Both the position numbers and the translations under genes were made by a program. Source: an uncultured Candidatus Saccharibacteria bacterium (lineage in GTDB: Bacteria; Patescibacteriota; Minisyncoccia; Phycocordibacterales; CAIZLB01). Taken from it: a stretch of DNA of 64,000 nt. The first letter of the stretch is position 1. Each line of letters opens with the position of its first letter. The DNA lies in assembly GCA_964520195.1 (NCBI GenBank), contig CAZFNX010000001.1, positions 34,421 through 98,420 on the forward strand, written 5' to 3'. The notes below the pieces were generated by a model. That model searched no databases, was not told the DNA's origin, and saw nothing but the letters and a program-made list of their open reading frames with translations. Below are positions 9,313-48,334 of the stretch, in pieces.

Positions 9313-10236
9313 ATGAAAAAACTGTATTACATTGTTGTGTTAAGTGTATGCAGTTTTTTTGTTATAATACACCCTGCATATGCTCAATCTGTTGTTGACA
9401 TGCGTCTTGACAGATATGTGACAGATACAGCAAACATGATTCCAGATGATGTACAGGCTCATATTGAAGATATATTACATGGATATGATGCCTCGACCAC
9501 AAATCAGATTGTGGTTGTAACAATTCCAGTATTACCAAGTGATGAGACTATAGAAACTGCAGCGTACAAAATATTTCAAGCAAATCATATCGGCCAAAAA
9601 TATAAAAATAATGGAATCCTTTTTCTTATCTCTTTACATGATAGAAAAAATCGTATTGAAGTAGGATATGGACTTGAGCCTGTATTGCCTGATGTATTAG
9701 CAAATATTATTTTACGCGATACAGTAAAACCTGCGTTTCAAGCCGGTGACTATGGGCGAGGAGTTTCAGATGCGGTGACTCGCATGATAGATATTATTGA
9801 TAAAAATGAAATATATACTCCAAGTGTAACAGATGAGCTTGCTTCAAAGTTGGGTGCTGAAAGTATTCCACAACTTTTCGGATTTATTCTATTTTTAGGA
9901 TTTATCCTTCTTTCATTCGTTGTTGGTATATTAAAAGCAATGTCACGAAGTAAGTCTGTGATACTTGGTTTGGTATTAGGTACAATACTCTCACTCATAT
10001 TGTTTTTTGTAACAGGGGTTGTGTATGTATTTATTTTTGTACTACTAGGTGTATTAGTTGATATATTTTTTTCAAGTAAATCTCCCGTGTCAGTAAAAAT
10101 ATTACAAATTCTTGAATTATTATCGAGATCAAGAGGGCGGGGAGGGTTTGGCGGTGGAGGATGGTCATCTGGCGGTGGAGGTTTTTCAGGTGGCGGAGGA
10201 TCGAGTGGTGGTGGAGGAAGTAGTGGAGGGTGGTAG
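9313..10236 (+). CDS. TPM-domain (YgcG-like) membrane protein with Gly/Ser-rich C-terminal tail
   Basis: Signal peptide, a TPM domain (GILFLISLHDRKNRIEVGYGLE), TM segments and a GGGxSGGGG repeat tail. It forms the classic LemA-TPM gene pair. Confidence 0.75.
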   Translation: MKKLYYIVVLSVCSFFVIIHPAYAQSVVDMRLDRYVTDTANMIPDDVQAHIEDILHGYDASTTNQIVVVTIPVLPSDETIETAAYKIFQANHIGQKYKNNGILFLISLHDRKNRIEVGYGLEPVLPDVLANIILRDTVKPAFQAGDYGRGVSDAVTRMIDIIDKNEIYTPSVTDELASKLGAESIPQLFGFILFLGFILLSFVVGILKAMSRSKSVILGLVLGTILSLILFFVTGVVYVFIFVLLGVLVDIFFSSKSPVSVKILQILELLSRSRGRGGFGGGGWSSGGGGFSGGGGSSGGGGSSGGW

Positions 10237-10281
10237 GAAAAAATATTTATCTAATATTTTGTTTTTCTTGAGGTAATAGTA

Positions 10282-45704: not shown

Positions 45705-45845
45705 GTACGGTAGTTTTGTGTTCTTGGAAATGTCTGAAAAGGGAACGCAAGGGTTACAAACCGTATATGTGTTTTATTAATGAATACCACTGGACTATAA
45801 CAAAAAAAAGCTATTTTTGCAAGGCTATGTGATACTCGAAAAATA

Positions 45846-45888
45846 AAAAACCTATGCCAGTTTGAGAGCATAGGTTTTTTATTTTTGA
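45846..45888 (-). terminator. Rho-independent terminator 3' of rpmA (AAAAAACCTATGC/GCATAGGTTTTTT)
   Basis: 13-bp perfect stem with T/A runs. Confidence 0.65.
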
Positions 45889-45893
45889 TAGTC

Positions 45894-46166
45894 TTACTTA
45901 ATGTGAACGACTTTCTTAACTGTAACTGTGTTGTCTATTTTGATTTTTCTTTTTGTGCCGAAAGATACTGTTCCAGCTTTAAGGGCGTATAGAGTATGAT
46001 CTTTACCAACTCCTACATTTTTCCCAGCCATGATTTTAGTACCTCGTTGTCGAACGATGATAGCTCCTGCTTCTGCTTTCTCACCTGCATACATCTTCAC
46101 ACCAAGATATTTTGGTTGTGAATCTTTAAGGTTTTTTGACGATCCTGCCGCTTTTTTGGTTGCCAT
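45894..46166 (-). CDS. rpmA: 50S ribosomal protein L27
   Basis: [12 protein letters not shown]...[11 protein letters not shown]...KAGTVSF; 90 aa. Confidence 0.9.
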
Positions 46167-46390
46167 GTGTTTATATTAATATATGTAATTTATGTTTTCT
46201 TTGAAAAATCTTTAACACTACCGTGGTATAGATATGAACATGAGTATATACCATATAATAAAAAAAATCAACAGCGACAGTCGGGAAGTATCGTTCAATA
46301 TACGTCAAGCTAGGGTCTTTATAATACTTCTGACAACTATATTGTTGATACAGGTTAGTATAGGGGTTATGGTCTGGGTTTATGTTGTAT

Positions 46391-46960
46391 AAAAAAGACC
46401 TCTTCCCCCCGACTAACTACGTCTCCTAAGAGTGTGTTTCGGGGCGGAAGAGGAAGTGCGGTTTGGTAGTGGATGAGGTTGTAAGCCTACCTGGCTACCG
46501 TTTTGCCGTGAAGCCAAGGACCTTTCGATCCGGTCTCGGCAAACACATTTATCGACGCCAGCCTAGACGAGCGCGATAAACAAACCATTGTGCACTCTTT
46601 AACTTTATCATTGTGAGTTTGTTTGTCAACCATATGAGCATGCTCGGAGACGGTGTGGTATAGGAAGGTATGGAAGGGATATGATTCTCTATAATATAAA
46701 TAAAAAAACCAAAGCTCTACTGAGGGCTTCGGGGTGCTTTTTGTTGTGTTGGAATAAATGAAGAGGATCTCCACTTGCCTCATGGAATAAATCTGGATTG
46801 TTGTCCAGACCTTGCTTCACAAGGCAAGTGGATAGACCGGCGTGTCCGCCACCTCCTCTCTACCGCATGCAGTTGCACACGTGTTTATACTCTTGGGTCG
46901 ACCGAACCATCAATAAGGGTCGACTTACGGTAATATTAGCATTTCAGGCTTTTTTATGTC
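46391..46960 (-). ncRNA. candidate structured non-coding RNA(s) of unknown class (GC-rich, hairpin-dense; minus-strand terminator at ~46391-46450)
   Basis: A 1.2-kb gap with no credible ORF. Its GC-rich segments contrast with the genome background. It contains a GNRA-capped hairpin (GGAUC-GAAA-GGUCC), long-range complementary arms (CCACTTGCC...GGCAAGTGG) and a minus-strand CCUCUUCCGCCCC...GGGGGGAAGAGG + U6 terminator. The boundaries are guesses. Confidence 0.25.
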
Positions 46961-46975
46961 AAATACAACAATCAA

Positions 46976-47021
46976 TAGGGTAGGGTAAAGGTAGGGTAAT
47001 AAGAGTAGGGGCTATACGGGG
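46976..47021 (+). repeat. degenerate (TAGGG)n G-tract microsatellite; potential G-quadruplex
   Basis: TAGGGTAGGGTAAAGGTAGGGTAATAAGAGTAGGGGCTATACGGGG. Confidence 0.5.
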
Positions 47022-47381
47022 AAATATGACTTATAATCAGTATATAAACAAACATCCCACTATTTCACCTAGATTTGTCATATGTCATATTTTACCATTA
47101 TTTTATAAGGGTAAAATGGTGGGAAAAAATATAGCCAAAATGGCAAAAACCCTCCCACTACTTGCATTTTGGGGTGGAATATGCTAAGATACTTAGGTCA
47201 CTGTAAGAGTGGCTATTTTATTTGTGCAACGTATATATTTTTTCAGAGGGCTTTCGCGATGAGTTATCTTTCTTACATAACTCCACTCAGTTGGCCATAC
47301 AGACATTGGTAAAAGATATATAAAGATTAACAAGTTAATATTAAGCTTATTTTACAATTCTCAACCCTTGCGTTTGCAACA

Positions 47382-47840
47382 TTGTTATCAGGTGCAGTTA
47401 TGACTATGCCAGATACATCGTTACAAAATGACGCAACAGTAGCCTCAAGCTCTGTATCAATAACTGAAGTAGCTTCAAGTACTAGACCATTAACAAAAAA
47501 AGAAGTTCAAAAACAACTAAACGCCACAGTTGGTTCATCTGTAAAATCTTATTTTAAGGATGCGCCTATTATGGAAAAAGTAGCATATTGTGAATCAACA
47601 TATATGCAGTTTGATTCAGTTGGTGTAGTTCATCGAGGTATTGTCAACAATAAAGACGTTGGTATATTCCAGATTAATGAAAAATACCACCTAAAACGTT
47701 CTCAAGATTTGGGTATGGATATATACTCAATCGAAGGAAACATGGAATATGCTCGAGTTCTGTATGAAGAACAAGGATTACAACCATGGTCAGCTTCTAA
47801 ACCTTGTTGGGGAAAGTTTCTTGATCTTGCTATCAAGTAA
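47382..47840 (+). CDS. lysozyme-like/transglycosylase-like (Rpf/SLT-type) domain protein
   Basis: AYCES...DVGIFQIN...W...C pattern resembling the Rpf/lysozyme-like fold. S/T-rich N-terminus. Confidence 0.45.
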   Translation: MLSGAVMTMPDTSLQNDATVASSSVSITEVASSTRPLTKKEVQKQLNATVGSSVKSYFKDAPIMEKVAYCESTYMQFDSVGVVHRGIVNNKDVGIFQINEKYHLKRSQDLGMDIYSIEGNMEYARVLYEEQGLQPWSASKPCWGKFLDLAIK

Positions 47841-47962
47841 TAACAATAACACCGCCTGTAAAAGGGTGGTGTTTTTGTTTTGTTGCTTAGCGACATGTTC
47901 TAGCTTTAAGACTGTTTGGTGATGTTGCAAAAAACCCTAACATGCGGTACAATAGGCAAATC

Positions 47963-48334
47963 ATGGCACAAACACCACTACCAAAACCAAAAGCTAAGAA
48001 AGCTACACCTGCAAAGGGAACACAGGCTGTTATTAAGACAGGAGGTAAACAATACCGAGTTCAAGAAGGTCAAACTCTTAAAGTTGAGAAGATTCTTGGT
48101 GATTTTAAAGTAGGAGACAAAGTAACATTTGATATGGTACTTCTAACAGATGATGGTTCAGCTATCACTCTTGGAACCCCATCTATCAAAGGTAAAAGTG
48201 TTTCTGCTACTATCACAGATATCGACCGATCTGCAAAAGTTATTGTTGGAAAGTTTAAACAAAAGAGTAAATATTTTGTTAAAAACGGTCACCGACAACC
48301 TTTCTTTGAAGTTAAGATTGATTCAATCAAATAA
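47963..48334 (+). CDS. rplU: 50S ribosomal protein L21 with Lys/Ala/Pro-rich N-terminal extension
   Basis: AVIKTGGKQYRVQEG...VEKI...GHRQPFFEVKI. The track ORF starts at 47942; the Met at 47963 is the likely start. Confidence 0.85.
   Translation: MAQTPLPKPKAKKATPAKGTQAVIKTGGKQYRVQEGQTLKVEKILGDFKVGDKVTFDMVLLTDDGSAITLGTPSIKGKSVSATITDIDRSAKVIVGKFKQKSKYFVKNGHRQPFFEVKIDSIK

Follow-up and report, generated by a model that had tools for sequence, protein, structure and literature searches.

The 64,000-nt stretch of DNA analyzed here (hereafter the window, within which all coordinates are positions) belongs to contig CAZFNX010000001.1 of an uncultured Candidatus Saccharibacteria bacterium, the close relatives of which are labeled in public collections as Patescibacteria, Candidatus Saccharibacteria, or Parcubacteria metagenome-assembled genomes (MAGs). 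The GC content of the window is 35.8%, pointing to an AT-rich genome, and the median intergenic spacer on a crude gene map is 55 nt; the gap under study, at 46167–47381, is the largest in the window. It is bounded on the left by rpmA, encoding L27 (45894–46166, minus strand), and on the right by p146, a lysozyme-like open reading frame (ORF) of 146–152 amino acids (47382/47400–47840, plus strand). A preliminary description of this DNA had presented the gap as an unusually long region between rpmA and rplU, non-coding up to 47381, with no plausible ORF and with two GC-rich segments. The unusual length is borne out, as is the lack of plausible ORFs, since none of those of at least 40 amino acids matched a Pfam model at E ≤ 1. 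Both GC-rich islands were also recovered, with 51–55% GC at 46400–46600 and 48–55% at 46750–46950 (about 50–55%, against the window-wide value given above). The right-hand boundary required correction in two respects: rplU (47942–48334, plus strand) is located one gene beyond p146, and the p146 frame is conserved at the protein level from about 47343–47349, so the non-coding stretch ends about 35 nt earlier than had been described.

The gap was divided into four parts: a zone with two units, U1 and U2 (46290–47050, minus strand); the p146 promoter together with a set of fixed-phase DNA motifs (47040–47195); the p146 leader (47197–47335, plus strand); and the rpmA promoter with a short leader (46167–46271). 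Read from its sequence, the gap is not one missing housekeeping RNA, and what it holds are two species-specific genes resembling those for small RNAs (sRNAs) beside a conserved structured leader.

Two Promoter-to-Terminator Units on the Minus Strand

The GC-rich material was assigned to two separate units because each has its own promoter, followed 205–225 nt further on by a hairpin and a U-tract. The promoter of U1 (46933–46962, minus strand) consists of TTGACA, an 18-nt spacer, and TAATAT, with an extended TG before the −10 element, and agrees with the promoter model at 10 of 12 positions, both in a promoter scan and in a second scan of our own. The predicted U1 transcript is about 225 nt long (46702–46926, minus strand), its start being placed from the −10 element. 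In the predicted fold (−81.4 kcal/mol; z −4.5 to −4.8 versus dinucleotide shuffles), a 5′ hairpin, GUCGACC/GGUCGAC, is accompanied by a long composite hairpin formed on CCACUUGCC/GGCAAGUGG with UCUGGA/UCCAGA inside it, and the unit ends in a terminator composed of the hairpin CCGAAGC...GCUUUGG and U7 at 46708–46702. The long-range arms pointed out in the preliminary description, TCCACTTGCCT and AGGCAAGTGGA, are present at 46770–46780 and 46822–46832; they are 100% complementary over 11 nt, with TCTGGA/TCCAGA nested within.

The promoter of U2 (46602–46629, minus strand) has TTGACA, a 16-nt spacer, TAAAGT, and again an extended TG before the −10 element, with 10 of 12 matches in both scans. Its predicted transcript of about 205 nt (46391–46595, minus strand), with the start placed in the same way, is predicted to fold into a closing stem around three hairpins (−79.9 kcal/mol; z −4.45). 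One of these is the GAAA-capped GGAUC/GGUCC hairpin within GCCG/CGGC that had already been noticed, which we locate on the minus strand at about 46536–46503. The U2 terminator is a 14-bp hairpin, CCUCUUCCGCCCCG...CGGGGGGAAGAGG, followed by U6 at 46396–46391. A minus-strand terminator had likewise been recognized earlier at this place, and a hairpin with the arms CCTCTTCC.../...GGAAGAGG (also written CCUCUUCC.../...GGAAGAGG) followed by a T-run is indeed found at 46391–46453. Across both units, the fold z-scores ranged from −3.9 to −4.8 versus dinucleotide shuffles, and the two GC-rich segments each gave about −4.5, a result that was repeated. No comparable promoter (at least 10 of 12 matches) or terminator was found on the plus strand of the U1/U2 zone.

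Both U1 and U2 thus show three features of a stand-alone sRNA gene, namely their own promoter, no convincing ORF, and an intrinsic terminator. The earlier proposal of unassigned structured RNA candidates stands in that such candidates are present and belong to no Rfam family; it does not stand as one RNA or one leader. Ten conspecific contigs from several samples are 99.3–100% identical over the region, with few variants, all located in spacers or in the length of a T-run and outside the RNA bodies; single-nucleotide polymorphisms within the species are too few for a test of selection.

The Same Site in Related Species

The syntenic locus was gathered from about 18 other species, by way of the S1 protein in GTDB genomes and JGI metagenomes and by way of L27 homologs and their contigs. 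Only the ends of the gap align in every species, at about 47399–47050 and 46280–46167. The middle, which measures 287–1367 nt, is unalignable between species, even where the S1 proteins are 91–94% identical. No homolog of U1 or U2 was found at the locus in any of these related species, and a search of 12 related loci with Rfam yielded nothing relevant. BLAST searches of phage and plasmid collections with U1 and U2 in a distant mode gave no match. Viral contigs were scanned for exact occurrences of two hairpin sequences; one pattern gave five 18-mer matches without flanking similarity, which we take as chance, and the other gave none. Further copies of any unit were absent from the window and from about 340 kb of related loci.

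The content of the middle differs in kind as well as in sequence. One relative, L046, has essentially no unit at the site, and another, L016, carries there (L016:3045–3584) an ORF of 179 amino acids with a signal peptide, its own TTGACA promoter, and no Pfam match. Because the site is empty in the one and occupied by a protein gene in the other, its cargo is dispensable. In L013 and L014, the design seen in U1 and U2 is repeated, with promoters matching at 11 of 12 positions, bodies of 100–190 nt with 43–57% GC, and a hairpin followed by a T-run, always in the direction of rpmA. The number of units per species ranges from zero to at least four. When the variable zones of 16 species (12 kb) were counted together, promoters with at least 10 of 12 matches numbered 21 forward versus 2 reverse (shuffled sequences, 2.8 ± 1.7), exact TTGACA hexamers 21 forward versus 1 reverse, and runs of T6 or longer 39 versus 10 runs of A6 or longer. 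The units of relatives are also GC-rich, and most of them fold with z-scores of about −2.5 to −6.6.

Motifs shared among the units are confined to the promoter, the terminator tail, a DnaA box, and, in three species, GTTGGGAGGC; no internal motif is common to them. In each of five relatives (L011, L014, L018, L019, and L047), one RNA unit has a perfect DnaA box that lies upstream of its TTGACA −35 element at a distance of about 20 nt, and this DnaA-box promoter module is conserved across the five, with the transcribed part almost wholly different. The sole unit common to two species is that of L018 and L019, which has retained its promoter and its terminator tail. Six compensatory pairs preserve a 14-bp hairpin in this unit, and in total 9 of the 26 predicted pairs are compensatory, a count based on two sequences only. 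The loop GUUGGGAGGC is conserved and recurs in L047, and the G-U pairs fit the forward strand. The only ORF shared by the two species reads through the terminator and has no stop inside the transcript, and for this reason it is not credible as coding sequence. At least in this case, the pattern of substitution indicates that such units are RNAs under structural selection; for U1 and U2 themselves, the argument would proceed by analogy with this unit, together with their own promoter, terminator, and fold features.

The absence of homologs in relatives, the complete turnover of the zone between species, and a GC content far above the genome average, as foreign DNA would have, could also be explained if U1 and U2 were relics of horizontally acquired or decaying DNA, such as pieces of foreign genes or of a degraded element, in neutral space between the two promoters, perhaps transcribed but functionless. 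The protein gene of L016 and the empty site of L046 would fit this explanation as well. Near-consensus promoters and proper terminators nevertheless bracket each GC-rich body, and the design recurs in 16 species with the strand bias described above, to which the compensatory evolution of the L018/L019 unit may be added. In an AT-biased genome, moreover, GC-rich hairpins that were not under selection would be eroded, and neither a Pfam trace of a coding past nor a match in the phage and plasmid collections was found. We therefore consider this explanation unlikely.

A different account of the same turnover would make the units small mobile or cassette-like elements, either resembling miniature inverted-repeat transposable elements (MITEs) or moved by an unknown recombinase, that target the C/A-rich tract upstream of rpmA, with the hairpins serving as terminal or recombination structures. 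Presence and copy number do vary between close species, similar C/A-rich tracts bracket each unit as if one tract had been split, and some units, such as the second unit of L011, contain long near-perfect hairpins. Yet no terminal inverted repeats or target duplications were recognized at the units, no second copy exists in the searched sequence (about 400 kb), the gene lists contain no integrase or transposase nearby, the orientation is constant, and the promoters and the terminators would be left unexplained. Such elements are an improbable source of U1 and U2.

Comparison with Known RNA Families

A search of the window with the Rfam covariance models returned nothing in the gap at the gathering score, and a search of 46100–47450 on both strands returned only noise at E ≤ 10, in a query of 1.35 kb, for which the filters are lax. 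The Rfam scan of both strands that the preliminary description had called for thus assigned no known family to the gap. ARAGORN detected no tRNA or tmRNA there, the sole tRNA being a tRNA-Val at 10945. These results agree with the earlier comparison by eye, in which RNase P RNA, tmRNA, and SRP RNA could not be made to fit. Neither type A nor type B RNase P RNA matched its covariance model in either search, and tmRNA was negative with both ARAGORN and Rfam. For SRP RNA, no Rfam match was found at E ≤ 10, and the GAAA hairpin lacks, by eye, the GGAA/AGCA loop pattern. The 6S RNA model likewise found no match, and the predicted folds are multi-hairpin (U1) or a three-hairpin junction (U2), not an end-paired rod. 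As for a conserved housekeeping RNA at this place, orthologs are missing in the relatives and L046 is unit-free, a statement that concerns the locus and not the relatives' whole genomes. A leader of rpmA is contradicted by the terminators that end both units, by the rpmA promoter at 46243–46271, which lies downstream of them, and by the lack of conservation of the units.

It had been suggested that the region might be a divergent member of a housekeeping family, a 6S-like RNA, or a ribosomal-protein leader, and GC-rich, structured, strongly promoted segments adjoining ribosomal protein genes do invite a reading as divergent RNase P RNA, tmRNA, SRP RNA, 6S RNA, or a long rpmA leader; a GGCUUAC stretch, as noted in the preliminary description, also resembles the 3′ strand of helix P4 of RNase P RNA. 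That reading is already largely refuted. There is no Rfam match even with lax filters, the units are missing at the locus from all of the relatives, one of which is entirely unit-free, two terminators and the conserved rpmA promoter stand between the units and rpmA, and the predicted fold of U1 does not bring its two ends together in a rod of the 6S type, so that we regard it as extremely improbable. U1 and U2 resemble 6S RNA, RNase P RNA, SRP RNA, and tmRNA in having strong promoters, structure, and a high GC content against an AT-rich genome, and differ from them in having no model match, no conservation at the locus, a number that varies from zero to at least four, and none of the family-specific motifs.

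A Conserved Structured Leader Upstream of p146

The AT-rich right-hand quarter of the gap holds the p146 promoter and a leader that was overlooked in the preliminary description. This leader is the one segment of the gap for which comparison between species lends real support to an RNA structure. The promoter (47162–47190, plus strand) consists of TTGCAT, a 17-nt spacer, and the extended −10 element TGnTAAGAT and is conserved in 17 species, among which the −10 hexamer varies only at positions 3–4 (TAAGAT, TATGAT, TAATAT, TATTAT, or TATACT). Conservation on the p146 side ends exactly at the −35 element of this TTGCAT promoter. Downstream of it, a 17-species alignment defines a structured 5′ leader of about 140 nt (47197–47335, plus strand; the start near 47197 is an estimate) with five helices: P1 (47197–47202/47208–47213), P2 (47220–47225/47330–47335), P3, a 12-bp A-U helix (47232–47243/47311–47322), P4 (47250–47253/47292–47295), and P5 (47264–47267/47277–47280), all on the plus strand.

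Of the 32 pairs in these helices, 15 have compensatory changes. In the alignment, 97.2% of cells are paired, compared with 39–49% in controls in which the partners were slid by 1–3 columns, and compensatory cells number 41, compared with at most 8 in the slid controls; none of 500 shuffles reached the observed values. The RNA was assigned to the plus strand because U-G pairs are frequent in it and would turn into A-C mismatches if the opposite strand were read. The leader has conserved internal-loop nucleotides and stops about 13 nt short of the conserved frame. No Rfam match was found for it at E ≤ 10, and a covariance model built from it recovered only the syntenic copy in each species (369 kb searched). 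Covariation analysis on relatives, which had also been proposed at the outset, thus gave structural support to this leader; for U1 and U2 it had no homologs to compare.

The position between promoter and coding start, syntenic in 17 species, and covariation in excess of controls are two features expected of a cis-regulatory leader. On this comparative evidence, the p146 leader is the one feature of the gap with hard support and a new candidate cis-regulatory RNA, which would act in cis on the translation of p146 or on the stability of its mRNA. It resembles the motifs classified in Rfam as "Cis-reg; leader" and riboswitch-like motifs in its location between promoter and coding start, its multiple helices, its strong covariation, its conserved internal-loop nucleotides, and its synteny. 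It differs from the leader motifs in having no Rfam match, in being AT-rich with a 12-bp A-U helix, and in being known from a single clade, where it precedes one lysozyme-like gene.

The conserved frame of p146 extends over 47349–47840 (plus strand) and has weak matches, below the cut-off, to the Pfam families Lys and SLT_3. Its hydrophobic N-terminus, KLILQFSTLAFATLLSGAV, is encoded before the first canonical start codon and is conserved as protein, one codon change in it (TTA/CTA) being synonymous. Of the possible starts, the TTG at 47382 has not been conserved in the L016 group, and the ATT at 47349–47351 is the one in-frame candidate shared by all 17 species, which makes an AUU start at 47349 possible. 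A conserved ORF of 37 amino acids at 47193–47306, which has been called in public contigs, was rejected, as relatives carry frame-shifting indels there.

DNA Motifs, the rpmA Promoter, and Spacers

Upstream of the p146 promoter, within 47040–47160, are three GTGGGA/TCCCAC motifs (47153–47158, 47119–47124, and 47055–47060; no strand assigned). In an alignment of 13 species (A8), these motifs are invariant and their spacing is fixed and free of indels, with variable sequence between them, and none of 10 pairs in 47040–47160 is compensatory. We read them as putative protein-binding sites at the DNA level. A conserved short minus-strand RNA, U0, starting from TTGCAC-17-TACAGT was considered for this segment and rejected: its promoter matches at only 7 of 12 positions, covariation is absent, and invariant motifs at fixed spacing fit DNA-binding sites better. 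In 10 of the 13 relatives, a DnaA box (TTATCCACA, in either orientation) occupies a fixed place among the motifs; it has been lost in this window, where no box with at most one mismatch occurs in the gap. A replication origin, which the DnaA boxes of relatives had suggested, was rejected on the grounds that there is no box in this gap and that the GC skew is positive on both sides, with no switch.

At the other end of the gap, the rpmA promoter (46243–46271, minus strand; TTGATT, 17-nt spacer, TATACT) is present in all 20 related sequences. The rpmA 5′ leader (46167–46236, minus strand) contains a small conserved hairpin with a variable tetraloop at about 46232–46209, for which RNAalifold gives 8 nearly invariant pairs with only 1 compensatory change; the alignment indicates that the hairpin is conserved, but covariation does not prove its structure. 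Between the U2 terminator and the rpmA promoter is a C/A-rich, G-poor spacer (46340–46385, minus strand), and similar tracts lie between the units (46640–46690) and before U1 (46963–47020). Such a tract precedes the rpmA promoter in all relatives, unit-free L046 included. It could be a Rho-loading site, or an ancestral spacer split by insertions, both of which are guesses only.

Two further observations concern these spacers. Just past the U1 terminator, the 32-nt segment 46681–46712 shares 75% identity with the rpmA promoter at 46240–46271 (TTGGTTTTTTTATTTATATTATAG... versus TTGATTTTTTTTATTATATGGTAT...) and may be a decayed promoter duplicate left by the history of insertion, or an AT-rich coincidence. 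Opposite the C-rich spacer that precedes U1, the plus strand carries at 46977–47012 four G-tracts (GGG TA GGG TAAAGGTA GGG ... GGGG) that could form a G-quadruplex. Elsewhere in the window, the spacer that separates rpmA from the S1-like gene contains a hairpin (45845–45880) with an A-run on one side and a T-run on the other, which resembles a bidirectional terminator. The strongest GC island of the window (10114–10244, 65% GC) is ordinary, being the part of a membrane protein ORF (9313–10236) that encodes its glycine-rich C-terminal tail. The 3′ end of the tRNA-Val gene (10945–11017), with about 35 nt downstream of it, is repeated twice as partial direct copies, at 11140–11195 and 11200–11220, which resemble the att-site scars of integrative elements.

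Interpretation of U1 and U2

By analogy with the L018/L019 unit and from their own promoter, terminator, and fold features, we infer that U1 and U2 are expressed, functional, accessory, lineage-specific sRNAs and not housekeeping RNAs, an interpretation that we find about as easy to doubt as to believe. The gap is the space between divergent conserved core promoters, that of rpmA leftwards and that of p146 rightwards, and under this interpretation that space would be, in this clade of Patescibacteria, a hotspot for accessory cargo that is gained, lost, and replaced between species. The cargo here would be a pair of small genes, independent of one another and both on the strand of rpmA, each with a strong sigma-70 promoter and an intrinsic terminator, and each giving rise to a highly structured transcript of about 205–225 nt with no convincing coding capacity that would be a stable, trans-acting non-coding RNA. 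Such RNAs would probably act through exposed loops or by binding protein; because the bodies are almost fully paired, loop pairing or protein binding would be likelier than a long single-stranded seed.

A number of observations weigh against this interpretation. GC-richness without conservation also fits recently acquired, functionless foreign DNA. The complementary strands of U1 and U2 fold about equally well, the 5′ ends of both are placed from −10 elements, and prediction of targets by duplex energy against 59 translation-start regions was uninformative. U1 and U2 have no homolog in the searched data from which covariation could be read. Finally, both units contain short ATG ORFs, of 16 codons in U1 and 33 codons (MVCLSRSS...) in U2, both beginning MV, and the lineage makes no apparent use of a Shine-Dalgarno sequence upstream of rpmA and S1, which leaves room for tiny proteins.

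If one or both of these ORFs were translated, the structured RNA would be the mRNA of a very small protein, as in type I toxin-antitoxin systems or small-protein genes. The ORFs begin 9–19 nt from the predicted 5′ ends, the absence of a Shine-Dalgarno sequence is not decisive in this lineage, and the unit of L047 has a hydrophobic ORF of 55 codons. The peptides of U1 and U2 are not hydrophobic, however, and no antisense promoter accompanies them; a type I toxin-antitoxin system in particular is not supported, as U1 and U2 contain no hydrophobic ORF and the zone has no plus-strand promoter with at least 10 of 12 matches. Across the units there is no family-wide ORF pattern, and in L018/L019 the shared ORF has no stop in the transcript and the compensatory changes in the hairpin alter its amino acids. 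A coding role for U1 or U2 is accordingly doubtful, with a low probability.

The sRNA interpretation places U1 and U2 among known kinds of genes. Bacterial intergenic sRNA genes form a general class in which each gene has a promoter and an intrinsic terminator of its own, turnover is rapid, and occurrence is restricted to particular lineages. U1 and U2 are like them in having a stand-alone sigma-70 promoter, 100–250 nt without a convincing ORF, a stable structure, a Rho-independent terminator, poor conservation, and a location between core genes. They are unlike them in that their bodies are unusually GC-rich and almost fully paired, with no obvious single-stranded seed, and in that several unrelated units stand in tandem at one hotspot, in a single orientation and with complete turnover between species. 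Accessory-gene or defense hotspots occur between conserved core genes, and the present site is like them in that its flanks are fixed, near relatives carry different cargo, and L046 has it empty. It departs from them in that its cargo consists mostly of tiny non-coding units on a scale of less than 1.4 kb, with no recombinase or mobility gene. None of this calls for a new category, since sRNA genes that stand alone, accessory hotspots, and structured leaders are each of a known kind. What is unusual, in so tiny a symbiont genome, is that structured RNA units are arrayed in tandem, all face one way, and turn over completely.

A bolder extension, which we think distinctly unlikely, is that the site is an "RNA cassette island", in which these episymbiotic Patescibacteria would keep taking up or inventing strongly expressed, highly structured sRNAs and exchanging old ones for new, some under the control of a DnaA box as in the sister species. 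These would form a fast-evolving accessory layer, for example of RNA-based defense, decoys, or effectors against phage or the host cell, and the island would be an RNA-only analogue of protein defense islands.

The non-coding RNAs of candidate-phyla-radiation bacteria are almost unexplored; a literature search found nothing on sRNA genes in these bacteria, and none of the RNAs described here was found in Rfam or in the searched literature. The p146 leader adds to them a candidate covarying structure that is new to Rfam and precedes a gene for a secreted lysozyme-like protein. One fixed site with zero to at least four unrelated units in sister species would allow the birth, death, and exchange of sRNA genes to be compared across genomes. 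If the units are not functional, they would be a useful example of GC-rich, hairpin-dense DNA that mimics an RNA gene; if they are expressed and functional, they would show a 1-Mb symbiont genome spending scarce space on fast-changing RNAs.

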